Source: an uncultured Ruminococcus sp. (GTDB taxonomy: Bacteria; Bacillota; Clostridia; Oscillospirales; CAG-272). From it: 64,000 bases of DNA. Under the pieces are notes generated by a model. It was not told where the DNA came from and searched no databases. It saw only the letters and a program-made list of their open reading frames with translations. This document shows positions 2,170-47,847 of this stretch, piece after piece; position 1 is the stretch's first letter, and each line of letters starts with the position of its first letter. Made by a program: the position numbers and the translations under genes. The stretch spans positions 2,608-66,607 of the forward strand of contig CACYYS010000013.1 in assembly GCA_902778725.1 (NCBI GenBank). Direction: 5' to 3'.

Positions 2170-3072
2170 TCAGACTCTTTTCAGCTTCATCATCGAGGAA
2201 GCGAAGGGGAGGAGCCCCTCCTCGTCCACGGCCAGCTCGTCCCAGGGGGACTTCACCTCGCCGAAGATCTCGCGGTGCTCGCCGGTGTTGTAGTAGTAAC
2301 GGCCGCCGACCGCCTTCCATTCCTTTTCGCCGACGGAGAACATCCCGTCCCGCAGGTCGGAGATCTCTCCCGCCTCCAGCGCGGCGCGGATCTCCTCCTC
2401 GGAGACGCCCTCCGGGAGCTTCATCCGGGTGAGGACCCGGTGGTCCGCCGTAAACTCGATCACGGGGTCAAAGGGCTTGAGCTCCTCGCGGCGTTCTTCC
2501 TCGTCCGCCCCGCGCGCGTCGAGATCCGCCTCGACCTCCTCGCGGGTGCAAAGCCGGAAGTCGCCGCCGATCACCGTCATCGCCGCCGCGACCTTCCAGA
2601 CGCCGACGATCCCGCAAAGCGCGGCGTCCTCGGCGCTCGGCTCGATCTCGCCGATGTCCGGCTCCTTTGTCTCGGTGACCGTGCCCTCGGCGATCTTCTT
2701 CATCCCGATGGCGAGGAACCCGAGACCGAAGACGAGGCACCCGTCCTGCACGGAGATCGTTTCCGCGTTTTTGCGGAAGGTGTCGTCCGGCAGATCGAGG
2801 AAAGCGCCGAGCGTGTAGTGATACTCGCCCCAGCCGGTCTGTTCCCAGGCGCCGGATTCTTTCTTGCCGCGGACGGTATCCTCCATCACGACGGTATGAT
2901 CCTCGGAGAAGGTGAAGGTGATCGCGGAAAAGTCGCCGCCGTCCTCACTCTTGAACTCCGCGGCGGGGATGTGCGCCAGATCGTTTGAAAACGCATTGAC
3001 GACAAAGTCCACCTGCCAGGTGCCTACGATAAATTTCAGTCCTTCGCGCAGATCCTGTTCGTCCAAAACCAT
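2170..3072 (-). CDS. hypothetical protein (acidic, no recognised domain)
   Basis: 300-aa ORF with coding-like composition that fills the gap between neighbouring genes. The opposite-strand ORFs here look like GC artefacts. Confidence 0.6.
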   Translation of the reverse strand: MVLDEQDLREGLKFIVGTWQVDFVVNAFSNDLAHIPAAEFKSEDGGDFSAITFTFSEDHTVVMEDTVRGKKESGAWEQTGWGEYHYTLGAFLDLPDDTFRKNAETISVQDGCLVFGLGFLAIGMKKIAEGTVTETKEPDIGEIEPSAEDAALCGIVGVWKVAAAMTVIGGDFRLCTREEVEADLDARGADEEERREELKPFDPVIEFTADHRVLTRMKLPEGVSEEEIRAALEAGEISDLRDGMFSVGEKEWKAVGGRYYYNTGEHREIFGEVKSPWDELAVDEEGLLPFASSMMKLKRV

Positions 3073-3151
3073 GGGAAAACCTCCTTGATGAATTTTTCTG
3101 CTTCTATCATAACAAAAGCGGAGGGAAAATGCAAGAAAAACCCGGATTTTT

Positions 3152-4288
3152 TCACCGCGTCACGAGAGCGGCGAAGCCGAGCATCAGGAGGAGAAAGGCG
3201 AAATTGAAGAGAGAGAAAAGCGCGAGGTAGCGTCCGGCCTTGCCCGGCTCGCGGCGGAGATACTCCCGGAAGGTGATCAGGCTGGCGAGGGAGGAGATCA
3301 GCGTCCCGACGCCGCCGATGTTCACGCCGACGAGCAGCTCCCGGTAGTTTTCCGTAAAGCGGGAGAGGAGGATCGCGGAGGGCACGTTGCTGATCAGCTG
3401 GCAGGAGAGCGTGCTGACGACGAGGGTGCTTTTTTCCAGCAGAGAGGAAAAGAAGCCGCTCACCGCGGGGATCCGCGCCATATTCCCGGAAAAGACGAAA
3501 AAGAAGGCGAAGGTGAAAAGCAGCGGATAGTCGACCTGCCGCAGCGCCTCCCGGTCGAGGAAAAGGAGAACGGCGGGGATCACGATAAGCCCGATCCAGT
3601 ACGGCAGGATCCGGAAGACCATCACGACGGAGAGAGCGAAAAGCGCAAGATAGACCGCCGTGCGGCGGCGGTCCGGCGCGATCTCCTCCTCCGGCAGGGA
3701 AAGCGGCTCCGGCCGGACAAAGACGAGGCAGCAGACGGTGATCAGCGCCACGGCAAAGAGAAAATGCGGCGCCATCACCGAAAAAAACTCCGCGTCCGGG
3801 ATATGAAAGCGGGAGTAGAGATAGAGGTTCTGCGGGTTGCCGAAAGGGGTGAGCATCCCGCCGAGGTTGGCGGCGATGTTCTGCATGATGAAGGTGAACG
3901 CCATATATTTTTTCCTGCCGGCCGTCTCGAGGACAAAGTACCCGAGCGGCAGGAAGGTCAGCAGCGCCATATCGTTTGCGATCAGCATCGAGCCGATAAA
4001 GGTGATATAAACGAGCGCGAGGATCGCGGCGCGGGTATTCCGGAAGCGGCGGACGATCCGGCGCGCAAGGATAGAGAAAAAGCGGATATCCCGCAGCGCG
4101 CAGACGACCGCGAGCACGCAGAAAAGGCAGGCGAGGGTCTTCCCGTCGAAATATCCGAGATACGCCCCGTCCGGCGGCACGAAGAGCATCGTCACGGCCG
4201 CCGCCGCCATCGCGACGAGCATCACCGCGTTCTTTTTTGCAAACGCCGCCGCGTGTTGCAATGCCGTCTGTTTTGCCGTAAGATCCAT
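3152..4288 (-). CDS. ArsB/NhaD-superfamily anion permease (citrate-transporter-like membrane protein)
   Basis: Polytopic membrane protein (GNPQNLYLY, ISNVPSAILL-type segments). The start at ATG 4288 is supported by a GGAGG RBS and a consensus promoter at 4317-4345. Confidence 0.75.
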   Translation of the reverse strand: MDLTAKQTALQHAAAFAKKNAVMLVAMAAAAVTMLFVPPDGAYLGYFDGKTLACLFCVLAVVCALRDIRFFSILARRIVRRFRNTRAAILALVYITFIGSMLIANDMALLTFLPLGYFVLETAGRKKYMAFTFIMQNIAANLGGMLTPFGNPQNLYLYSRFHIPDAEFFSVMAPHFLFAVALITVCCLVFVRPEPLSLPEEEIAPDRRRTAVYLALFALSVVMVFRILPYWIGLIVIPAVLLFLDREALRQVDYPLLFTFAFFFVFSGNMARIPAVSGFFSSLLEKSTLVVSTLSCQLISNVPSAILLSRFTENYRELLVGVNIGGVGTLISSLASLITFREYLRREPGKAGRYLALFSLFNFAFLLLMLGFAALVTR

Positions 4289-4316
4289 ACCGTTCGTCGC
4301 CTCCGCACAAGGCGAT

Positions 4317-4345
4317 ATTGTAGCACCGCCGGCGCGGGATGTCAA
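4317..4345 (-). promoter_or_regulatory. sigma70/SigA-type promoter for the permease gene
   Basis: The minus strand reads TTGACA, a 17-nt spacer, then TACAAT, about 28 nt upstream of the ATG at 4288. Confidence 0.7.
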
Positions 4346-4555
4346 CAGGAAGTTTTGCGTTTTTGAGAAGTTTTTGGGCGGCGCTCCTCTTTGCCCCGCT
4401 TTTCCGGTTCGTCGGGAGAAAGGAGATCCCCGAAATCCCCCTCTGAACGCTGCTCTTTTTCCGACATTCGCCTTAAAATCCGATGCGCGGCGACAACTTG
4501 ATGAAAAACCGTGCTTTTTTGCATTTATAAAAGCCTGAACTCGCAAAAAAAAGGC

Positions 4556-4584
4556 TTGCAATTTTGCCTAACGCCTGCTATAAT
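4556..4584 (+). promoter_or_regulatory. sigma70/SigA-type promoter (P1) facing the lipoprotein cluster
   Basis: TTGCAA, a 17-nt spacer, then TATAAT on the plus strand. Confidence 0.6.
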
Positions 4585-4630
4585 GAAATAAAATTATATG
4601 TCATTTTCGGTAAAAATTGCGGAAAGGGGC

Positions 4631-4659
4631 TTGACTGATATGAAGAAAAACGCGATAAT
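4631..4659 (+). promoter_or_regulatory. sigma70/SigA-type promoter (P2) directly upstream of the GTCA repeat
   Basis: TTGACT, a 17-nt spacer, then GATAAT. The -10 element ends 3 nt before the microsatellite. Confidence 0.55.
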
Positions 4660-4662
4660 CCC

Positions 4663-4726
4663 GTCAGTCAGTCAGTCAGTCAGTCAGTCAGTCAGTCAGT
4701 CAGTCAGTCAGTCAGTCAGTCAGTCA
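4663..4726. repeat. Tetranucleotide microsatellite (GTCA)16
   Basis: 64 bp of perfect GTCA units counted directly from the sequence. Confidence 0.98.
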
Positions 4727-4780
4727 AGGGTAACCCTGCCTGCTTCTTTTGTCAATACCTTTTTGATAAAAATATCAATC

Positions 4781-4823
4781 GGCGCGATACGCTCGCTTGA
4801 CGCGGGTTTGTCGCGCCCTTTTT
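4781..4823 (+). terminator. possible intrinsic terminator or attenuator
   Basis: Stem ggcgcga..tcgcgcc with a 23-nt loop, followed by CTTTTTATT. It lies between the repeat and the first lipoprotein gene. Confidence 0.35.
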
Positions 4824-4886
4824 ATTGTTGTCTTTAATCCCGATTTTGGGAAAAGAATAAAAAAATATATAAACGGAGGCAAAATT

Positions 4887-5447
4887 ATGAAAAAGATCAT
4901 TACATTGGTGCTGGCACTTCTGATGCTCGTTAGCTTGGTAGCGTGCGGCACGACGGCCAACAATCCGGGGGACGACACCAAGCCCAACAATTCACAGAGC
5001 ACGAATACACCTGGTGACAATCAGCCAGCTAACAATTCAACTGAAATCAAGGATATCAATACTTCAAACTATGTTGAAGTGACGAATAAGAATTTCGGTA
5101 TTGACCCAAGTATATCCGGTTTGAAAATCACCAAAGCGAAAGCTCAAGGAAGTTCGCAGATCACACTGGTTTTCAGCATCGAGAGTGGAAACGAAGAGTC
5201 TTTCGTCAAAGCATTCTTTGAAAAATGCCTAAGTGCTTCCGATGACAAGGCATGCTACAGACAGGATTGGCCTGATGACGGCGGATACACGATTACTGTT
5301 GGCGAGAAAGTTACCAGTTGGGAATCCTGGAAACAGGAAGAAGCTTTCGACCAGAACTGGTTCTATCTTGTCGACGGCAAATACATTGCATTCGGCGGCA
5401 GTCAGCAGCCCGGCAATGAATTTGAAGTGACCATCAACTTCAAATAA
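4887..5447 (+). CDS. lipoprotein, unknown function
   Basis: Lipobox signal MKKIITLVLALLMLVSLVACG with a GGAGG RBS 8 nt upstream. AT-rich composition unlike the flanking DNA. Confidence 0.8.
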   Translation: MKKIITLVLALLMLVSLVACGTTANNPGDDTKPNNSQSTNTPGDNQPANNSTEIKDINTSNYVEVTNKNFGIDPSISGLKITKAKAQGSSQITLVFSIESGNEESFVKAFFEKCLSASDDKACYRQDWPDDGGYTITVGEKVTSWESWKQEEAFDQNWFYLVDGKYIAFGGSQQPGNEFEVTINFK

Positions 5448-6214
5448 TGCTTATGAAAAAAATAGTTTATATTATAGCGCTGTTGCTTGCCGTTGTTCTT
5501 TGTCTTTCAGCGTGCGGCAATAATACAAATCCGGGTAACTCTTCAACGACCCAGAATCAGGATGTTGAAGAAAAGGATGCAAATGGGCATGTCGTAAAAC
5601 TGAGTCACTACAATGACAAGGGCGATCTTGTTTTTGTACACGAAACGAAGTGGGAGAATGACCGCATTGTCAAGAAGACCAGTTTTGACGGCAAGGGCAA
5701 TCAGACCGCTTCAATCGATTACAAATATGACGATAACGGTAATGCGATTGAAACTTCGTGGTTTGGCTGGAGCAGCGGTGTTCTTATGAAAGCCGAATCT
5801 AAGTTTGATGACAAAAACCGCGAAATCGAAAGAACCCAGATCGGTACCGGCAGCATTTCCACAAACAAATCCATTATGGAATATGTGGAATTCCCTGACG
5901 GCGTTGACCATCCAAATATCTATTCCAAGAAGACTTACTATCCGTCATATCCCGGTGACCGTTATACTGTAACCACATACGAGTATAATGACGATTACAA
6001 GATGACAAAGGCCACCACGGTCGACCAGAACGGAAATCTTTCGTACTACATTCTTTACACTTATGAGAACGGCAAGCTGATGGAATACACCAATTACGGC
6101 GCTGACGATAAGCCGAGTTATACCTACAAAATGGTCTATGACGAGAACGGAAACAAGCTCAGAGAAGATCGTTACGACGGCAACGGTAACCTTCAGGGTT
6201 CAGACAAAAGTTGA
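5447..6214 (+). CDS. lipoprotein with YD/RHS-like short repeats
   Basis: Lipobox LLAVVLCLSACG. Repeated motifs YNDKGD, YKYDDNGN, YDENGN and YDGNGN. An alternative start exists at ATG 5453. Confidence 0.8.
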   Translation: MLMKKIVYIIALLLAVVLCLSACGNNTNPGNSSTTQNQDVEEKDANGHVVKLSHYNDKGDLVFVHETKWENDRIVKKTSFDGKGNQTASIDYKYDDNGNAIETSWFGWSSGVLMKAESKFDDKNREIERTQIGTGSISTNKSIMEYVEFPDGVDHPNIYSKKTYYPSYPGDRYTVTTYEYNDDYKMTKATTVDQNGNLSYYILYTYENGKLMEYTNYGADDKPSYTYKMVYDENGNKLREDRYDGNGNLQGSDKS

Positions 6215-6297
6215 TTCTTTAAAGACGAAGTTTTCATAAGAAAAAAGAGCTTTTTATAAAAACAATTAGTAATCTGCTTCTTGAGGAGATTTTTGTA

Positions 6298-6798
6298 ATG
6301 AAAAAATTAATCGCATTGTTTTTAGTTGCAGTGATGGTTTTGTCATTTGCGGCATGTGGAAAGAAGGATACCCCAAAGGACGAAGCTAGCCAAACTCAGG
6401 CAACAGAAGGCTCTAAAGACACAACGAAAGCTGATGAGAGCGTTGCAGATATCGGTGTTACGGTTATTCATAAAGACGGTAAGACAATATTTACCGTTGA
6501 TCAGAGACTTGGAATCAAGCAGGATGCTTGGGTTGGTTTCTGTCCCGGAACTGAGGGCTATGTTAATGAGGCGGATGCTGATGCAAATCAAGTTGCGTAT
6601 GCTTATACAGGCTATGATGAAGGAAATGATACCTACAACTTTGAATTTGATGATGATACGATCTCAGGACTTGGCGATGGTGACTATGTTGTCGTAGTTT
6701 GTGACAGCGATGCTGAGGGCAAAGTCATTCTTTATATACCTGCTGTTATTCAAGGTTCTAAAGTCACATGTGACTTTAGCAAAGCTGTCATTAACTGA
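6298..6798 (+). CDS. lipoprotein, unknown function
   Basis: Lipobox MKKLIALFLVAVMVLSFAACG with a GGAG RBS. AT-rich composition. Confidence 0.8.
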   Translation: MKKLIALFLVAVMVLSFAACGKKDTPKDEASQTQATEGSKDTTKADESVADIGVTVIHKDGKTIFTVDQRLGIKQDAWVGFCPGTEGYVNEADADANQVAYAYTGYDEGNDTYNFEFDDDTISGLGDGDYVVVVCDSDAEGKVILYIPAVIQGSKVTCDFSKAVIN

Positions 6799-6934
6799 TT
6801 TGTCGGAAGACTTATACGTCTATAACGGCGAAGAAAAGATAATCAAAGAAGAACAGTATGCCGGCGAAAAAACCTTGTAAGCGTTGACTATACGGGTTCG
6901 TAATGTTTTAGGCGTCATAAAGGAGTAAGAGAAA

Positions 6935-7456
6935 ATGAGCTTTTTATCAAAACTGTTAGGCGGAGATAAAAACGCCGAAAAAGAGGTAAAGAATCTGCTG
7001 AACGGACTTTTCGGAAATCCGCAGCCGGGACAGGCCGCCGCGCCGAAACAAGAGACTCCCGCAGAGGAGACTCCTTCCCCTCAGCCGGTCCAAAGCACCT
7101 CGCGTTCCGGCTTTTCGTGGGGCGATGAAATGCCGGCGGAGGAAAACCAGTATAACTATAACGGCACCTACGAGCAGTATTTTGAACACGTGTTCGCCGA
7201 GGATTTCCCCGCATACCGGTTTGAAAAGACGTATATCGACGATTACGGCAAGCACCGCGTGATTTACACGTTTTTCAGCGGCGGAACAAAGGCGCTCGTC
7301 ATCGAGCTTATGACCGCGTCGAGCGAGGCGGTCAAGTTCAGAAACGATTGCAGAAAAGCGGGTGTCCCGTATCTTCGCTTTTATTACGACTACAAGGGCT
7401 GGTGGAACACCCGCGCTTACGTGGTCGGACGTATGCGCTCGGTATTGAACGGCTGA
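6935..7456 (+). CDS. hypothetical protein upstream of the RT
   Basis: 173-aa ORF with an AAGGAG RBS. It has a disordered P/Q/E-rich N-terminal half. The C-terminal half (VIYTFFSGGTKALVIELM...KFRNDCRKAGVPYLRFY) loosely resembles restriction-endonuclease-fold modules. This is a weak impression only. Confidence 0.6.
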   Translation: MSFLSKLLGGDKNAEKEVKNLLNGLFGNPQPGQAAAPKQETPAEETPSPQPVQSTSRSGFSWGDEMPAEENQYNYNGTYEQYFEHVFAEDFPAYRFEKTYIDDYGKHRVIYTFFSGGTKALVIELMTASSEAVKFRNDCRKAGVPYLRFYYDYKGWWNTRAYVVGRMRSVLNG

Positions 7457-7475
7457 GCGCACAGCAACATTTGTT

Positions 7476-7613
7476 AAAAAGCAGAAAGAGAACGCTTTGC
7501 GCCTGCGGCGGACCCGGCACGGACAAACGTATGACTTCGCAGGCAGTCTGTGCGTGTACGGTCTTGTACATCCCGAAATTTTCGGGATTTAACGGATTCT
7601 CTTTCTGCTTTTT
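7476..7613 (+). ncRNA. candidate structured RNA element, stem-closed, upstream of the RT gene
   Basis: A perfect 17-bp inverted repeat (aaaaagcagaaagagaa at 7476-7492, ttctctttctgcttttt at 7597-7613) encloses 104 nt. That interior holds three local hairpins: gcctgcg/cgcaggc, tgtac/gtaca and atcccgaaa/tttcgggat. A T-rich tract follows. The RT ATG is 18 nt downstream. Confidence 0.5.
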
Positions 7614-7631
7614 CTTTTTTCGGGGTGGAGT

Positions 7632-8876
7632 ATGTCGCTTTTGGATCAGCTTTCGGACGAAGCCGTCTGGAACCGGTTTTATGAATACAAGTTATCGCTC
7701 GCCTGTCCCAAACAGTTTACGGGCGAGCTGCGCCGTTTTATCGACGAAAAGCGGTATCTGCCGGTATGTGAAATCATAAACGCCGGGAAGGATTTCCCGA
7801 TCCCGCAAAAGTCCATCATCGCCAAAATGGGCACGGACAAAAAGCGTGTGGTCTATACCTATCCCCGGGACGAAAACACGGTGCTGAAGCTGCTGACGTG
7901 GATGATCCTGCGGAAATACGACCGGATTTTCAGCCGTAACCTCTATTCGTTCCGCCCCGGCAGGACCGCAAAAGACGCGGTGCGCGACCTGCTGAAAACC
8001 GGGAAAGTCTCGCAGGCGTACTCCTACAAGGTCGATATCCACGACTATTTCAATTCCGTCCCCGTAAAGCGCCTGCTGCCGATGCAGAAAGCCGCGCTCG
8101 GAGACGATGAAAAACTGTATTCCTTCCTTGCAAAGCTGCTGCTTGAACCGCGCGTATCCGACCGGGGAAAGGTGATCGTCGAGCGCAAGGGCATTATGGC
8201 GGGAACGCCGCTGTCCTCTTTTTACGCCAATCTGTATCTTTCGGAGCTTGACCGGCATTTTGAGGAATCGGGCGTGATCTACGCCAGATATTCCGACGAT
8301 ATGATCGTGTTTTCCCCCGATGAAGCCCAAGTGAAAAAACACGCAGAGTTTATCCGTTCCTTTCTCGCCGCGAATTCGCTCACCGTGAATCCCGCAAAAG
8401 AGAACTTCGGAGATCCCGGAGACGGATTCGTCTTTCTCGGTTTTTCCTGCGTCGGCAACAAGGTGGATATCGCGCCCGCGACCGTGAAAAAGCTGAAACA
8501 AAAAATGCGCCGCAAGCGCGACGCGCTCTCGCGGTGGCAAAAACGCAACGGATTCGGCGGCGAGAAAGCGGCGAAAGCGTTTATCCGTATTTTCAACGCC
8601 AAGCTGCTCGAATCCCCGCGCGACAACGAGCTCTCCTGGAGCCACTGGTTCTTCCCGGTGATCAACACGACAGAAAGCCTGCACGCCATCGATCTCTACG
8701 CGCAGGACTGCCTGCGGTATCTGATCAGCGGAAGGCACACAAAGGCGCGGTTCAACGTGCGGTATGAGGATCTGAAAGCACTCGGTTACCGCTCGCTTGT
8801 CCACGCCTGCTACCGTCACGCCGCCGAAAATCCGCAAGAGAAAGAAACCGGCAAAAACGGCGGGGTCGGCAAATGA
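7632..8876 (+). CDS. free-standing reverse transcriptase (class undetermined; no endonuclease or other fused domain)
   Basis: RT motifs are present in order: KKRVVYTYP (1), SFRPGRTAKDA (2), YKVDIHDYFNSV (3), GIMAGTPLSSFYANLYLSELD (4), ARYSDDMIVF (5), LTVNPAKE (6), FVFLGF (7). A helical thumb-like region of about 140 aa follows. Confidence 0.9.
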   Translation: MSLLDQLSDEAVWNRFYEYKLSLACPKQFTGELRRFIDEKRYLPVCEIINAGKDFPIPQKSIIAKMGTDKKRVVYTYPRDENTVLKLLTWMILRKYDRIFSRNLYSFRPGRTAKDAVRDLLKTGKVSQAYSYKVDIHDYFNSVPVKRLLPMQKAALGDDEKLYSFLAKLLLEPRVSDRGKVIVERKGIMAGTPLSSFYANLYLSELDRHFEESGVIYARYSDDMIVFSPDEAQVKKHAEFIRSFLAANSLTVNPAKENFGDPGDGFVFLGFSCVGNKVDIAPATVKKLKQKMRRKRDALSRWQKRNGFGGEKAAKAFIRIFNAKLLESPRDNELSWSHWFFPVINTTESLHAIDLYAQDCLRYLISGRHTKARFNVRYEDLKALGYRSLVHACYRHAAENPQEKETGKNGGVGK

Positions 8877-8913
8877 GGACCGTCTCCGCCGTTTTGCCGG
8901 TTATGCGAACGCG

Positions 8914-9002
8914 GAGAAAAAGCGGATATCCCGCAGAGCGCGAGGAAAAGGCAGGCGGGGGTCCTCCCGCCATAATACCCGGGACACGCCCCGTCCGGCG
9001 GC
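8914..9002 (-). pseudogene. frame-broken relic of the 5' coding region of the permease gene
   Basis: Aligns by eye with 4074-4178, with 27 of 28 bases matching at gagaaaaagcggatatcccgcag.gcgcg. A gap of about 18 nt follows, then roughly 85% identity through acgccccgtccggcggc. The gap breaks the reading frame. Confidence 0.7.
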
Positions 9003-9036
9003 GTGTCAACTCTTTTTTCGGGGATTTTCCCCTTTT

Positions 9037-9708
9037 TTACCGCCCCCTTCTTTCCATTACGCTCACCTTAAAACGTACCAGCCCCGCGTCGTCAAGCCAA
9101 AAGGCGAGGGCCCTCTCCGTGATCCGGCCGTTTTCCTCCCCCGCCGCCGTTTCCGAAAAGGTCAGCCGGTACGGCGCGTTTTCCCCCGCTTCCCCGTACC
9201 GCAGCTCCATCCCGTCTTCCGAGAGGAGAAGGATCCCGTCCGCCGGGATCGCGGCATCGTTGCCGGGATCGAATAGAAGCCCGATCTTTTGCAGAACAGC
9301 CGGGCGGCTGTCGCCGAAGCAAAGGCCGAACGGGAGGGTCAGCCCGTCGAGCGCAACGGTCGTATAGAACGAGGTCTCGGTCCATGCGTGAAAGAAGGCC
9401 CAGGAAGCGCCGAAACGCTCCTCCGTCGCAGACCATCCGTAACACTCGCCCTCGGCTTCTACGCCGTCCCAGTTCAGCCCGCCGCCCGCGTGCTCCACGA
9501 TCGTCTTCCCCTCGTAAGAATAGCGCGGGACGATCCGGTCGATCAGGTCGCTTTCACTCAGCCCGGCGACAAATCCCTCGCCGTCGAGAAACTGCCGGAA
9601 CGTGAGGAGGATCTCCCTTCCGTTTTCCCCGCCGGCTTTCCCGGCGCCGCAGGAGCAGAGTCCGAAAAGAAACGCCAGAACCAACAGAGCCGCCATCGCT
9701 TTTTTCAT
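9037..9708 (-). CDS. lipoprotein, unknown function
   Basis: Start moved to ATG 9708, giving MKKAMAALLVLAFLFGLCSCG (lipobox). The upstream ORF extension is Arg/Ser-rich and looks like a GC artefact. Confidence 0.7.
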   Translation of the reverse strand: MKKAMAALLVLAFLFGLCSCGAGKAGGENGREILLTFRQFLDGEGFVAGLSESDLIDRIVPRYSYEGKTIVEHAGGGLNWDGVEAEGECYGWSATEERFGASWAFFHAWTETSFYTTVALDGLTLPFGLCFGDSRPAVLQKIGLLFDPGNDAAIPADGILLLSEDGMELRYGEAGENAPYRLTFSETAAGEENGRITERALAFWLDDAGLVRFKVSVMERRGR

Positions 9709-9766
9709 CTTTTTCTCCTTTCTCTCCGCCCGGCGGGCGGGTCTTCCAAACCGTTTTTGACCGGGC

Positions 9767-10165
9767 TTACCGGTACATCGCAAGCTCGGCGGAATCCATA
9801 AACTGACACATCGACAGGTTGAAGCCGCGGTAATCGGCCTCCGAGAACTCTTCCGTCGCCGAGGCGACGGTCGCCCGGACGAGATCGAGCTGACTGAAAA
9901 AGGTGACCGAAAGCGGCACGCGCAGGATCCCGGAGATCCCGCGGACCGTAAGACAGCCGGCCTCCCGGAGGGAGAGGACCTCCTTTTCGTTTCGGACGGG
10001 AACGGTCCTTTCCCGCTCCGCGTCGCCGACAAGCAGCTCCGGCTCCTCCATATCGGAAAAAAGCAGCGCCGCCGCGCGGCAGATCTGCTCCCAGCCGACC
10101 CGGTAGGTCAGCCTCCACTCGGAAAAAAGCCAGTCCCCCTCTTTTTTCACGCCTGACAACGTCAT
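9767..10165 (-). CDS. hypothetical protein
   Basis: 132-aa ORF with coding-like composition in the same orientation as its neighbours. Confidence 0.5.
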   Translation of the reverse strand: MTLSGVKKEGDWLFSEWRLTYRVGWEQICRAAALLFSDMEEPELLVGDAERERTVPVRNEKEVLSLREAGCLTVRGISGILRVPLSVTFFSQLDLVRATVASATEEFSEADYRGFNLSMCQFMDSAELAMYR

Positions 10166-10229
10166 CGCACGATACTCCTTTCTCCGGCGAGCCGGGTTTG
10201 GTAAATCCGTTTTTTCGGACCGGAAGCGG

Positions 10230-10529
10230 TCAGCCTTCTCTCCGCATCCGGACGATGCGGTTTTCGGACCGCGTCAGCCCGGGTTTTTCCTGCAGCCGCA
10301 GGGAAGCGAGATTGTCTTTTTCGACCTGTCCGAACGGGACACAGCCCCGTTCCGTCTTCCACGCGATCAGGCGCTTTTCCGGCGCCGCGCCGAAGCCCCG
10401 GCGCCGGTACGCGGGAAAAACGCAAAGCAGCCCCATGCTCCCTTCCGGACGCTCCCCCGCAAAGCCGACAAGCCGGTCCCCCTCGTACCCGAGCAGGACG
10501 GAGCCCCGCCCGACGGCTTTTCTCTTTTT
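10230..10529 (-). pseudogene. N-terminally truncated GNAT acetyltransferase remnant
   Basis: The frame reads ..VLLGYEGDRLVGFAGERPEGSMGLLCVFPAYRRRGFG.., which covers GNAT motif A. An in-frame TGA at 10530-10532 removes the expected first ~60 aa. Confidence 0.5.
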
Positions 10530-10530
10530 T

Positions 10531-10560
10531 CAGTATAACAAAAACGGACGGAGTTTGCAA
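10531..10560 (-). promoter_or_regulatory. possible sigma70-type promoter reading into the GNAT remnant
   Basis: The minus strand reads TTGCAA, a 17-nt spacer, then TATACT. Confidence 0.4.
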
Positions 10561-10705
10561 GAAAAAAAGGATCGTTTTCGCGCTCTTCGACTTTCTTCTC
10601 TCTTCCACTTCTTCCCTCTTCACTCTTACTTCTTACTTCCCAAAATCCTGCGCGGGGAGAAGGACGAGGGAAAAGTGAAGAGTGAATAGTGAAGAGTGAA
10701 TAAGG

Positions 10706-10735
10706 AAAAATCCCGCGCTTTCGCGCAGGATTTTT
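10706..10735 (-). terminator. hairpin plus T-run following the tRNA 3'-end fragment
   Basis: aaaaatcccgcgc-tttc-gcgcaggattttt, with one mismatch in the stem. Confidence 0.5.
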
Positions 10736-10756
10736 GGTGGGCCATCAGGGACTCGA
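10735..10756 (-). repeat. 22-bp duplicate of the 3' end of the CAU tRNA
   Basis: tggtgggccatcagggactcga is identical at 10735-10756 and 10942-10963. The second copy is the T-arm, acceptor and CCA of the intact tRNA. Confidence 0.9.
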
Positions 10757-10906
10757 TCGCCTGCCGGCGCCCCAGGGTCGGCTCTGTCGCTCCCCCGGAG
10801 CGACATTCAAAGCCGCGATTTTACATCGCGGCATGAATTGGAATCTTTCGCGGAGCGAAAGTCTCTGCTCCGCGCCCGTTCGAGTCCCTTTTTGATCGAA
10901 GCCACC

Positions 10907-10941
10907 AAAAAAGGAAGCATCCTTGCGGATGCTTCCTTTTT
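10907..10941 (-). terminator. Rho-independent terminator after the tRNA
   Basis: A6, then the hairpin ggaagcatcc-ttgc-ggatgcttcc, then T6. Confidence 0.8.
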
Positions 10942-11018
10942 TGGTGGGCCATCAGGGACTCGAACCCCGGACCAACCGGTTATGAGCCGGTAGCTCTGAC
11001 CAACTGAGCTAATGGCCC
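10942..11018 (-). tRNA. tRNA with CAU anticodon (elongator Met or lysidine-modified Ile2; not distinguishable by eye)
   Basis: The reverse complement folds as a cloverleaf. Elements: acceptor GGGCCAT/ATGGCCC, D arm GCTC..GAGC, anticodon arm ACCGG-CTCATAA-CCGGT, T arm CGGGG-TTCGAGT-CCCTG, and an encoded CCA. Confidence 0.9.
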
Positions 11019-11120
11019 CGGTCGGGGATCCCGACAGTATCTTATTATACAGGGACTTTCGGGTTTTGTCAAGACGGCAAAGAGAAACGGCGGCGGGAGT
11101 TTTCCCCGCCGCCGGTCCTG

Positions 11121-11666
11121 TCAGAGCTCGAGCCGCATGAATAGTTCCCCGCAGGGACGTCCGCCCGAGAGGCGGAAGGCGTCCGGCAGGCGGCTGACGG
11201 TCCGGAAGCCGAACTTTTCGTAGAACGCGATCGCGCGGGCGTTTTCCTCCATGCAGCAAAGCTCCAGGAAGGCGACGCCGCGCGTCCGCCCCGCCGCGAT
11301 CATCTCCGAGAACAGCGCGGACCCGATCCCGAGTCTCCAGACCTCCCGCCGGAGCGCGATCCCCAGCGTGGCGCGGTGCGCCGTCTTTTTCCGGGCGGAA
11401 AAATTGATCTCGCAGTTGCCGACGATCCGCCCGTCAAGAAAACAGGAGATCATGAGCGAATCAGGCGAGGCGCGTTTTCCCCGTACCCACGCCCGCTCCT
11501 TTTCCGGATCGGTCTCCGTTTCCTCCGGGCCGCGCGTCAGAAACTCCGTCTCCCCGCTGACCGCGCGGAGATAGTCGAGCAGCTCCTCCGCGTCCTCCTC
11601 ACGGGGGGTACGCAGGAGCGCCGTCCGACCGTCTTTCAGCAGGATCTCTTTTTCCGGAAACAACAT
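11121..11666 (-). CDS. GNAT family N-acetyltransferase
   Basis: 181 aa. Motif A region LRREVWRLGIGSALF and C-terminal NARAIAFYEKFGF. Confidence 0.8.
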   Translation of the reverse strand: MLFPEKEILLKDGRTALLRTPREEDAEELLDYLRAVSGETEFLTRGPEETETDPEKERAWVRGKRASPDSLMISCFLDGRIVGNCEINFSARKKTAHRATLGIALRREVWRLGIGSALFSEMIAAGRTRGVAFLELCCMEENARAIAFYEKFGFRTVSRLPDAFRLSGGRPCGELFMRLEL

Positions 11667-11684
11667 CTCTCTTCCCTTTTCTCC

Positions 11685-13076
11685 TTACTCAAATTCGATC
11701 TCGAACATCTTGGACCCGTAAAACCGCGGGCCCGCGCTCGTAATATACCACTGCGAGATCACGACCGGCATGATCTTCCCGTATTCGCGGTTCATCATCT
11801 CGTGCGTGAAGCCGCCGTACAGACCGGACGCCCCGCTCTTGGAGGGCAGGTCCGCCGTCAGTTTCGGCTCCTTGATCGAGATGAGGAGATACGGCCTGCT
11901 GTACGGGCCGTACGGATGATCCGCCGTCGCGTAGCAGATCCCCGACTTTGTGCGGTAATACGTCAGCACCCATTTGCCGAGATACTCGTTCCAATGGACC
12001 GCCATATTGCTCGTCGGCGCCGGGATCACGTCCGCCGCCGTGGGATCCGCTGTGATCGCGTCGATCCCTTCCCGGTAGGGGAGCCAGACCGGCTCGCCGT
12101 TCTCGTAGCGGACGAGATACTCGTAGGCGGAAAACCGCTCGAAATCCTCCCGTTTGACCCGCGCGACCTTGATCCCCTTCTGCCTGCCGCCGAAGCGGCC
12201 AAAGAGATAAACGTAGCCGTCCTTGCCGTCGAGCGGGTAAAGCTGCCCGAAGCCGGGGACGACATGCGACGGTCCGTCGAAATCGACCGCCACGCTCCCG
12301 AGGTTTATATCCGCCTGGATCAGCCTTGCGGCAAGCAGAACGTCGTTCTCGTCGGTCGGCTCGATCCAGGAAAGATCGTACACCTTTTCAAAGGTCTTGC
12401 CGCCGTCATCCGAGCGGATCACGCCGCCGTAATTGACGTCCCAGTACCCGCTCTCTCCCCAGCGGCGGATCGACTCGTAAAAGAAATACAGTTTTCCGTC
12501 CAGCTCGATCCCGCCCTGGCAGATCTTGGAGATCTCCTTGGTGTTGGAGCCGGTTTGGTGGAGCGCCTTGACAAGCTCTCTCGCCATGCCCGTTCCGTCG
12601 TCGAGAAACCCGTCCCAGCGGATCCCCTCCGAAAAATCAAGCAGCTCGGTATAGCCCGCGACCGTCGTGCGCCAGTTTTTCTTTTTGGTCGGGTCGATCT
12701 CGCTCACCCCCGACGTGTCCCCGAACAGGAAATACATCCTCTGCTGCGAGGGACTGTAAACGGGAACGCCGAGATCGGTCCCGTAGACGTCCCATCGGTC
12801 GGTCAGCCCGACACCCGTCAGATTGGCGACGTACCGGTACGCCTTCACCCGGATCACCTCAGGATGCTCGATCACGACCGCCGGTTCCGTTTCCGGCGCC
12901 GGCTGATCCTCCGTTTCCGCCGCTCCGGTCAGCTCGCCGGCGGGCGCGGCGGCGCAGCCGGTCAGAAGAAGAACCGGAACAAGAAAGAGGCAGGGTACGC
13001 CTCTTTGCAGGAAGAAAACCGCCCGCCCGATCGGACCCCTTTTCTTTTCGTTTCTCTTTTCCGGATCTCGTTTCAT
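11685..13076 (-). CDS. DUF4185-like secreted/lipoprotein, putative glycoside-hydrolase-fold protein
   Basis: Signal/lipobox LLLTGC. DRWDVYGTDLGVPV and FLFGDT motifs are typical of DUF4185. Confidence 0.65.
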   Translation of the reverse strand: MKRDPEKRNEKKRGPIGRAVFFLQRGVPCLFLVPVLLLTGCAAAPAGELTGAAETEDQPAPETEPAVVIEHPEVIRVKAYRYVANLTGVGLTDRWDVYGTDLGVPVYSPSQQRMYFLFGDTSGVSEIDPTKKKNWRTTVAGYTELLDFSEGIRWDGFLDDGTGMARELVKALHQTGSNTKEISKICQGGIELDGKLYFFYESIRRWGESGYWDVNYGGVIRSDDGGKTFEKVYDLSWIEPTDENDVLLAARLIQADINLGSVAVDFDGPSHVVPGFGQLYPLDGKDGYVYLFGRFGGRQKGIKVARVKREDFERFSAYEYLVRYENGEPVWLPYREGIDAITADPTAADVIPAPTSNMAVHWNEYLGKWVLTYYRTKSGICYATADHPYGPYSRPYLLISIKEPKLTADLPSKSGASGLYGGFTHEMMNREYGKIMPVVISQWYITSAGPRFYGSKMFEIEFE

Positions 13077-47520: not shown

Positions 47521-47700
47521 CCGCAAATGAAATCGCCCCTCAAGGCGCGGTGAAATCCTCGCGCCGCCCGGATGAAATCGTTCGCTTCGCTCTCGATGAA
47601 ATCAAATCCGTCCTTAAAACCCGACGAAGTCGGATTTCATCGCAAAGCGATTTCATCCGCCGCAGGCGGATTCATCCCGTCCATAAGGACGGATTTAATT
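47521..47700. repeat. word-plus-hairpin array (GATGAAATC / GATTTCATC)
   Basis: GATGAAATC-like words occupy the first half and their complement GATTTCATC the second. They are separated by short GC hairpins, e.g. cgccgcaggcg and ccgtccataaggacgg. Confidence 0.75.
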
Positions 47701-47847
47701 GAAAAAGCCTCGATTCCGCGAGGCTTTTCTGTATAAAAACGCCTGAAAGATGCACAGCTTTGTTTTTCTCATTTGTTCCGATTGCTATTCTAATGTGAGG
47801 TAATTTCTTTGACGTTTGGACACAAAACTACTGGATAGTGCAAAAAA

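Follow-up and report, generated by a model that had tools for sequence, protein, structure and literature searches.

Does a free-standing reverse transcriptase (RT) gene that lies just downstream of a stem-closed, structured RNA represent a new kind of system, and what might such an enzyme make from such an RNA? The question is raised by a locus at 6935-8876 of a 64,000-nt stretch of DNA (the window) from an uncultured Ruminococcus sp. (assembly GCA_902778725.1, contig CACYYS010000013.1, positions 2,608 to 66,607), in which a preliminary description had recognised a candidate defence RT templated by a non-coding RNA (ncRNA), and perhaps an undescribed RT-ncRNA pairing. Profile matches identify the locus as a typical UG26-type module of the Class 2 UG/Abi RTs, built of three parts, and not as a new class, with the RT_UG26, RTasCOG2852, and Rfam RT-5 entries covering the RT, a small accessory gene upstream, and the RNA, each of which is, by these matches, already catalogued. 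The RT corresponds over its full length to UG26 of Mestre et al. 2022 (NAR 50:6084; PMC9226505), and the RNA to the RT-5 motif of Weinberg et al. 2017 (NAR 45:10811; PMC5737381), so that the message for a genome scan is a known family, the preliminary description having been right as to the kind of system and wrong as to its novelty. What is new against the searched literature, in which none of the three was found reported, is the explicit link between RT-5 and UG26, an extended RNA structure comprising a closing stem (P0), a mini-hairpin (P0a), and a pseudoknot, and the near-obligate three-part architecture. As far as that literature shows, the UG26 module is without experimental study.

The RT matches the PADLOC profile RT_UG26 with 576 bits (E 7.8e-174), residues 1-397 aligning to profile positions 1-396 of 398, with the runner-up group-specific profiles UG27, UG4, UG17, and Drt9 scoring 96-103 bits (96 bits each for UG17 and Drt9), and the generic RT profile PDLC01136 scoring 117 bits. 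This is the outcome of the placement by profile hidden Markov models that had been proposed as a check in the preliminary description. The sole Pfam match is RVT_1 (residues 65-271), confirming a free-standing 414-residue RT with a YSDD box and no fused domain. Neither YSDD (residues 220-223, nt 8289-8300) nor FLGF (residues 268-271) varies in an alignment of 16 RT sequences, and 152-153 aligned loci all keep YSDD. The NCBIfam models of group II RT/maturases, Drt2, Drt3a, and retron St85 all score far under their curated cutoffs, the best being TIGR04416 (group II RT/maturase) at 109 bits versus a cutoff of 300, with NF041746 (Drt2) at 59.5 versus 390 and NF038233 (retron St85) at 51.9 versus 235. 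The PADLOC retron RT profiles score 45-49 bits, and a retron RT is ruled out on these values, in line with the initial impression that the motifs are not retron-like. A group II intron is likewise ruled out, as had been supposed, with no Rfam group II intron RNA found at E<=1 in 6000-10500, on either side of the open reading frame (ORF). No cas Pfam families were found within ±10 kb, again as first reported, and no array-like repeats, which rules out a CRISPR-associated RT, while the absence of a template repeat/variable repeat pair in 3000-13000, where the only long repeat is a permease fragment, rules out a diversity-generating retroelement.

The AlphaFold2 model of the RT (pLDDT 87.7, pTM 0.81) shows fingers/palm, a thumb, and a short C-terminal helix. 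A Foldseek search with this model places it nearest to the group II intron RT GsI-IIC (TM-score 0.74) and G2L4 (0.70), with DRT9 at 0.62-0.64 and DRT2 at 0.45; no UG26 structure was found in the PDB. Public annotation of the RT relatives reads 'group II intron reverse transcriptase domain-containing protein'.

Loci of rumen and gut Clostridia, more than 160 in all, show a near-obligate linkage of the three parts. The best 80 genome loci come almost entirely from metagenome-assembled genomes (MAGs) of rumen Clostridia, with one from Phoenicibacter (Actinomycetota); the RNA element lies directly upstream of the RT in 77 of these (nhmmer with the window element), and the accessory gene lies directly upstream on the same strand in 77 (tblastn). 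Two of the three exceptions are contigs that ended upstream, and the true exception, L079 (2600-3900), has the RT directly after an unrelated gene, with neither RT-5 RNA nor accessory gene. Searching metagenome contigs with a pattern for the RNA only gave 120 matches, comprising 94 true RT-5 elements and 26 chance matches from soil or water samples. Both genes are present at 84 of the 94 true elements, nine of the remaining ten being ended by a contig edge; put differently, the accessory gene stands upstream in 84 of the 85 metagenome loci that are complete on both sides, and six more keep the accessory gene and end before the RT. The exception, L203 (7230-8100), has the RNA and RT without the accessory gene, its upstream gene being unrelated. 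That gene resembles, by eye, an MGMT-type DNA methyltransferase. The order accessory gene, RNA, RT is kept in 171 related loci wherever the contig allows, with L079 and L203 the two exceptions, and all-against-all clustering of the ORFs of the loci revealed no third conserved protein family within ±5 kb. A blastn comparison with the closest locus places the shared bounds of the module at ~6917-8812, and conservation stops at the RT stop codon. The pairing of the RT with a conserved structured RNA stands as first described; the ORF at 6935-7456 is a conserved third component that the preliminary description had not recognised.

The RT family is large, with 3312 proteins at E<=1e-10 among 8000 candidates scored, a count that may include other RT groups; identity to the query is 62% or more throughout the best 120, and at least 575 GTDB species genomes encode an RT relative. 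The RTs of the clade sampled here are at least ~52% identical. The module seems to be restricted to Clostridia of the rumen and gut that are uncultured. A complete UG26 module is also found in the Phoenicibacter congonensis MAG (L023), which cross-phylum transfer or a binning error could explain. Neither RT relatives nor the ncRNA were found in IMG/VR, and INPHARED phages and PLSDB plasmids gave no tblastn match at E<=1e-20; carriage by phages or plasmids was rejected on these searches.

The limits of the RNA element given in the preliminary description, 138 nt closed by a perfect 17-bp stem around internal hairpins and ending 18 nt before the RT ATG, proved accurate to the base, with the arms of the inverted repeat (7476-7492/7597-7613) complementary at 17 of 17 positions and separated by 104 nt. 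In the minimum free energy fold (z = -2.98) the closing stem forms, as do internal hairpins, and none of 200 shuffles was as stable. The core fits all 104 positions of RF03026, untruncated, with 87 bits versus a gathering threshold of 45.7 (E 5e-17); compared with the structure line printed by cmscan for this model, P0 (17 bp), P0a, and the P1-loop pseudoknot are extra here. The coordinates of these elements are collected below.

Coordinates in the window of the UG26-type module, its genes, and the structural elements of its RNA
Feature	Position	Strand	Description
Module, operon-like, ~1.9 kb	~6917-8876	+	Order accessory gene, ncRNA, RT
Accessory protein gene	6935-7456	+	173 aa; PADLOC RTasCOG2852
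Whole ncRNA element, RT-5 plus closing stem P0	7476-7613	+	138 nt; nhmmer, covariation
P0 5' arm (AAAAAGCAGAAAGAGAA)	7476-7492	+	Pairs with 7597-7613
P0a mini-hairpin CGC-UUU-GCG	7493-7501	+	7493-7495 with 7499-7501
Rfam RF03026 (RT-5 RNA) match	7497-7600	+	Model positions 1-104 of 104
Pseudoknot 5' strand CCUGCG	7502-7507	+	Pairs with 7538-7543
P1 long hairpin	7508-7567	+	P1a 7508-7514/7560-7567 (U7565 bulged), P1b 7517-7525/7549-7557, P1c 7533-7536/7545-7548
P2 hairpin CCCGAA-AUU-UUCGGG	7572-7586	+	7572-7577 with 7581-7586
Junction J(P2/P0), A/C-UUUAA-NNNN	7587-7596	+	Candidate template loop
P0 3' arm (UUCUCUUUCUGCUUUUU)	7597-7613	+	Pairs with 7476-7492
U-rich tail after P0	7614-7620	+	U-rich run in most loci (alignments)
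UG26 RT gene	7632-8876	+	414 aa; PADLOC RT_UG26

Covariation supports every helix of the RNA element. It was assessed in a 77-sequence genome alignment (A2) and in an alignment of 77 further, non-overlapping metagenome sequences made with a refined model (A6); the pseudoknot strands of A6 were fixed by the search pattern, making A6 uninformative on the pseudoknot, which is supported by A2 only. Across homologous loci, where the preliminary description had advised looking for covariation, 93.5% of cells are paired in A2, compared with ~45% when the partners are slid, and 39 of 50 pairs change on both sides; in A6, 95.6% are paired, and none of 500 shuffles equalled either alignment. The top mutual-information column pairs are modelled base pairs, and RNAalifold recovers P0, P1, and P2 unguided. 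P0 changes on both sides at 16 of 17 pairs in A2 and 14 of 17 in A6, its outer pairs covarying and its two innermost A-U pairs almost never varying. P0a is 98-99.6% paired (A2, A6), with a compensatory change in L040 and L042, and is enlarged by inserted hairpins in four loci (L016, L038, L063, and L093); an alternative pairing with 7505-7507 is equally possible according to RNAalifold. The pseudoknot, the 3' strand of which lies in the apical loop of P1 (7537-7544), is 99.3% paired in A2, with compensatory changes in L026 (U-A) and L044/L048 (G-U). P1, for which RNAalifold gave the better P1a register listed in the table, changes on both sides at 10 of 14 pairs in A2 and 9 of 16 in A6, with the invariant GUACG (7556-7560) in its internal loop/junction and GUA (7566-7568) as conserved unpaired nucleotides. 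All six P2 pairs change on both sides (96% paired), and J(P2/P0), of fixed length and containing the invariant UUUAA (7588-7592), is the largest conserved single-stranded segment. Together with P0, the U-rich tail possibly forms an intrinsic-terminator-like 3' end of the ncRNA; a simple terminator scan did not call P0 and the U-run, the loop being too long.

The accessory protein matches the PADLOC profile RTasCOG2852 over its full length (E 2.6e-57). A conserved MGLLSKLFGG-like N-terminal peptide is followed by a disordered Pro/Gln-rich linker and a C-terminal domain (residues ~60-173) predicted by AlphaFold2 with pLDDT >90 as alpha-beta-beta-beta-alpha-beta-alpha, with residues E124, Y146, R148, Y150, GWWN 155-158, and Y162 invariant. 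When 1.84 billion representatives were searched exhaustively with an HMMER profile, only 226 clusters were returned, all of this same family. In a few relatives (P0241-P0247, P0323, P0349, P0358, and P0360) the architecture differs, although the domain is always C-terminal; some carry two such domains in tandem, and others an N-terminal zinc-ribbon and/or a weak match to bPH_1, a bacterial PH domain (under the Pfam cutoff), connected through very long Pro-rich linkers.

Overall, these data are best explained, and we consider probably so, by a UG26-type module that would carry out ncRNA-templated DNA synthesis as inferred from DRT2, DRT9, and DRT10. In these characterised Class 2 systems the neighbouring ncRNA is the iteratively copied template, and ncRNA-templated, probably protein-primed synthesis is guessed here because UG26 is Class 2 like them; the kinship with ncRNA-templated DRTs suspected at the outset holds to the extent that the nearest characterised relatives are DRT systems. 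The RT would bind the 138-nt RNA as a scaffold and repeatedly copy a short internal template into DNA, the likeliest template being the invariant single-stranded A-UUUAA-NNNN (7587-7596) just after P2. By analogy, J(P2/P0) may be the best structural counterpart of the DRT9/DRT10 template loop, its position after a hairpin paralleling that of the DRT10 loop after SL5. Priming would probably be from a tyrosine of the RT itself, for which the C-terminal YY (residues 393-394) and the invariant Y19 are candidates. W13 and Y19 are invariant across 163 loci (Y19, nt 7686-7688, in 163/163), and the YY pair (nt 8808-8813) is near-invariant, with Y394 in 133 and Y393 in 128 of 136, the RT of the present window having C393-Y394 in its place; the conservation of Y393/Y394 matters because DRT9 and DRT10 prime from C-terminal residues. 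The accessory protein may serve as the effector of a response to the DNA product, or may regulate it, and P0 with the U-run probably fixes where the RNA ends on its 3' side and curbs transcription running on into the RT gene.

Several observations weigh against this proposal. Short A-B-A' repeats of 3-4 nt recur at fixed positions (GUAC..GUAC, GCAGGCAG, and GCG..GCG), and these sit in helices or are invariant, the junction itself holding only a 2-nt UU..UU repeat; neither the repeats nor the junction exhibit identity-type covariation above the phylogenetic background. The best of the 3-4-nt repeats, GUAC-N6-GUAC (7556-7569), was rejected as a template, lying in helix P1a with both GU dinucleotides and the spacer base-paired in P1 (RNAalifold, pair counts); were it used, the predicted product would be (AAGACCGTAC)n. 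No RNA, cDNA, or phenotype data for any UG26 system were found in the searched literature. The neighbours of the module in the window are housekeeping genes, as they are in a close relative, and the 140 nearest-neighbour ORFs of ~40 loci showed no defence enrichment in a crude test with no matched control. Finally, a nuclease effector role of the accessory protein is doubtful. The predicted topology of its C-terminal domain would fit a restriction-endonuclease-like core, and by eye its sequence pattern resembles DUF559; the protein is without the canonical D and K, however, and of an expected D...(D/E)xK triad it shows no invariant residue but E124, the role being doubtful because E124 is the single invariant acidic residue. 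Identification as a DUF559/Vsr nuclease was rejected, with none of 41 family members matching Pfam, even at E<=5, no match in a PDB sequence profile search, and no significant Foldseek match of the domain to PDB or BFVD; PHROG and NCBIfam gave no match either. 'COG2852 nuclease' thus appears to be an unverified label for this protein.

UG26 and RT-5 may form a mechanistically distinct Class 2 system, in a non-defence-island setting and possibly with a role other than classical defence against phages, which we regard as a possibility, albeit an unlikely one. Here the RT, on its pseudoknotted, stem-closed RNA, would copy the UUUAA junction into a short tandem repeat, predicted for this window as (TCCGTTAAA)n, or into other defined DNA, and the product would act with a catalytically degenerate, nuclease-fold-like partner from a family without known relatives.

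Anti-phage defence would be the default expectation for this RT lineage and is the weakest step for UG26. The preliminary description had assumed it; the genomic context does not support it, Mestre et al. (PMC9226505) rated the defence association of UG26 'inconclusive', and RT-dependent phage resistance for UG26 was not found reported in the searched literature. The 140 neighbouring ORFs comprise ABC transporters, regulators, and oxidoreductases, with at most one or two defence-specific matches; their commonest PADLOC matches are generic ABC-ATPase cross-hits, and their Pfam families are housekeeping ones. The RT might instead be a domesticated group-II-intron-like enzyme serving DNA repair or another host or mobile-element process, as has been proposed for G2L4, alongside a degenerate partner with a repair-nuclease fold. 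Such a non-defence role is consistent with the nearest structures, the best NCBIfam match, and the lack of a defence-island context, and Mestre et al. predicted non-defence functions for UG4 and UG27, the next-best PADLOC profiles here. We nevertheless consider it improbable: no group II or G2L model comes near the score of the UG26 profile, an actinobacterial MAG contributes one locus, and the module is patchy, single-copy, found in variable genomic contexts, and placed here in a low-GC segment, which fits an accessory, horizontally moved module.

That segment has a GC content of ~41-57% across 4500-8900, compared with 60-67% in the flanks. The permease relic noted in the preliminary description is real: a CitMHS permease gene lies at 3152-4288 on the minus strand, and a ~105-nt fragment from its N-terminal part (4074-4178) is repeated, 84-96% identical, at 8914-9002, shortly after the RT stop codon. 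Between them the copies enclose a ~4.7-kb low-GC segment, which contains three lipoprotein genes and the UG26 module and no integrase, and the duplication resembles a scar left by DNA that inserted into the permease gene at its 5' end. The three consecutive small lipoprotein-like genes (4797-6798) encode 216, 255, and 166 residues at 41-43% GC in a genome of 60-67%, each with a signal peptide followed by Cys. Their synteny with the RT module extends to L003 alone (78.6% identity over 4711-8812 by blastn), the sharing with L001 starting only at 6917. A perfect (GTCA)n microsatellite of ~16-18 units (4655-4726), intergenic and upstream of the first lipoprotein gene (4797-5447), could allow slipped-strand phase variation. 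Further downstream, a tRNA-Met (10942-11018, minus strand) is accompanied, 207 nt away, by a 31-nt copy of its 3' end, 94% identical (10731-10761 versus 10938-10968), which could be a remnant att site, and by a perfect 21-bp hairpin (10902-10922/10927-10947) after the tRNA. A match to the Rfam Gut-1 RNA (RF01706) lies at 47629-47701 on the minus strand (53 bits versus a threshold of 50).

Returning to the proposed ncRNA-templated synthesis, the RNA could instead act mainly in cis and not as a template, as a 5'-UTR binding site for the RT, an attenuator, or a processing site governing RT expression, with the RT synthesising DNA untemplated or using other substrates. The element does lie in the gap between two ORFs of the same orientation, ending 18 nt ahead of the RT start, its strong stem followed by a U-run resembles a terminator, and no promoter-like site was found within the module, a simple promoter scan of 6600-9200 finding no sigma-70-like site. 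The invariant single-stranded UUUAA and GUACG and the pseudoknot, however, exceed what an attenuator needs, and all characterised Class 2 relatives use the neighbouring ncRNA as template; the two roles are compatible, and a mainly cis-acting RNA seems to us a slightly poorer candidate still than the non-defence role. A retron-like arrangement would have P0 as a1/a2, the 2'-OH of G7494 as primer, and copying from the junction at the 3' arm into P2 and P1, giving an msDNA-like branched molecule. Weinberg et al. (PMC5737381) speculated that many RT motifs belong to retrons, and the order of the RNA, with a closing repeat, small 5' hairpins, a long hairpin, and a template start at the 3' arm, upstream of the RT, agrees with this, as does the conservation of G7494, just 3' of the 5' arm, at >=90%. 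While the closing inverted repeat and internal hairpins are present as in retron msr/msd, P1 is highly conserved in sequence and locked by the pseudoknot, whereas msd stems vary; the characterised Class 2 RTs prime from protein (DRT9, DRT10) or an RNA 3' end (DRT2) and not from a 2'-OH (doi 10.1101/2025.10.16.682844), and the retron model scores given above fall far short of both their cutoff and the UG26 score, leaving a retron-like product distinctly improbable. A rolling circle of DRT2 type around the P0-closed loop, yielding a concatemeric 'neo' gene, is the most improbable of all, for although a stem joining the ends of a ~105-nt interior is the DRT2 device and the interior in the window is 105 nt, a multiple of 3, such a gene is excluded by unbiased interior lengths modulo 3 (27/22/28 loci for remainders 0/1/2) and by stops leaving no stop-free circular frame on either strand in 51 of 77 loci, and the Drt2 model score is far under its cutoff.

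Each Class 2 UG RT studied so far has led to an unexpected form of DNA writing, with DRT2 making a de novo gene, DRT9 poly-dA, and DRT10 telomerase-like repeats, and UG26 is among the Class 2 groups without experimental work. The present analysis provides a starting kit for such experiments, comprising a cognate RNA (RT-5) with covariation-backed structure and boundaries, evidence that a small upstream gene is part of the system, candidates for the priming residues and for the template loop, and more than 160 natural variants. The system is common, as the number of species genomes encoding an RT relative attests, and no defence-island context was seen for it.

Among known systems, the group II intron RTs and G2L4 offer the best structural and NCBIfam matches, and differ in that the UG26 RT falls far below the TIGR04416 cutoff and has no intron RNA domains and no endonuclease or maturase extension. 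DRT2 uses rolling-circle synthesis to create a de novo gene. DRT9 (UG28; Tang et al. 2025, Nature; PMC12483538) makes poly-dA from a universally conserved U tract in its template, primed from two tyrosines of the C-terminal tail. Like DRT9, the UG26 module has its ncRNA just upstream of the RT, a universally conserved short loop tract, two C-terminal tyrosines, and an RT of similar fold (TM-score 0.62-0.64); unlike DRT9, it has a dedicated accessory gene, and membership of DRT9 was rejected, with the tract being UUUAA and not poly-U, and the Drt9 profile scoring 96 bits versus 576 for UG26. DRT10 (UG17; Tang et al. 2025 preprint, doi 10.1101/2025.10.16.682844) is a tripartite system of ncRNA, effector, and RT that produces telomerase-like tandem repeats, with a 137-nt ncRNA formed by a large central stem-loop bearing smaller stem-loops, a stem-loop just 5' of the template loop as template boundary, and a C-terminal Ser or Tyr as primer. 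The UG26 module shares with it the Class 2 RT, the tripartite composition, an ncRNA of ~137 nt with a large closing stem and smaller stem-loops, a hairpin that immediately precedes a single-stranded loop on its 5' side, and an RT whose C-terminal end carries a conserved hydroxyl residue. In contrast to DRT10, the UG26 module has no SLATT effector, its accessory protein matching no SLATT family in Pfam or PADLOC, the ncRNA sits between partner and RT, the RT scores 96 bits on the UG17 profile compared with 576 on UG26, and the UUUAA of the candidate loop does not vary, whereas the template loops of DRT10 show little conservation. DRT11 corresponds to UG5, and no later DRT number was found for UG26 in the searched literature. 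Weinberg et al. (PMC5737381) described motifs RT-1 to RT-19 near RT genes, guessing at retrons and leaving the RT group unnamed, and Mestre et al. (PMC9226505) described UG26 as a Class 2 UG/Abi RT with 35 members and no ncRNA. The present RT matches that group end to end with no fused domain, and its accessory protein matches the UG26-associated profile; while a COG2852-annotated neighbour (cluster 1531) accompanied 9 of those 35 members, in the present clade the accessory gene occurs at nearly every locus, as does the ncRNA.

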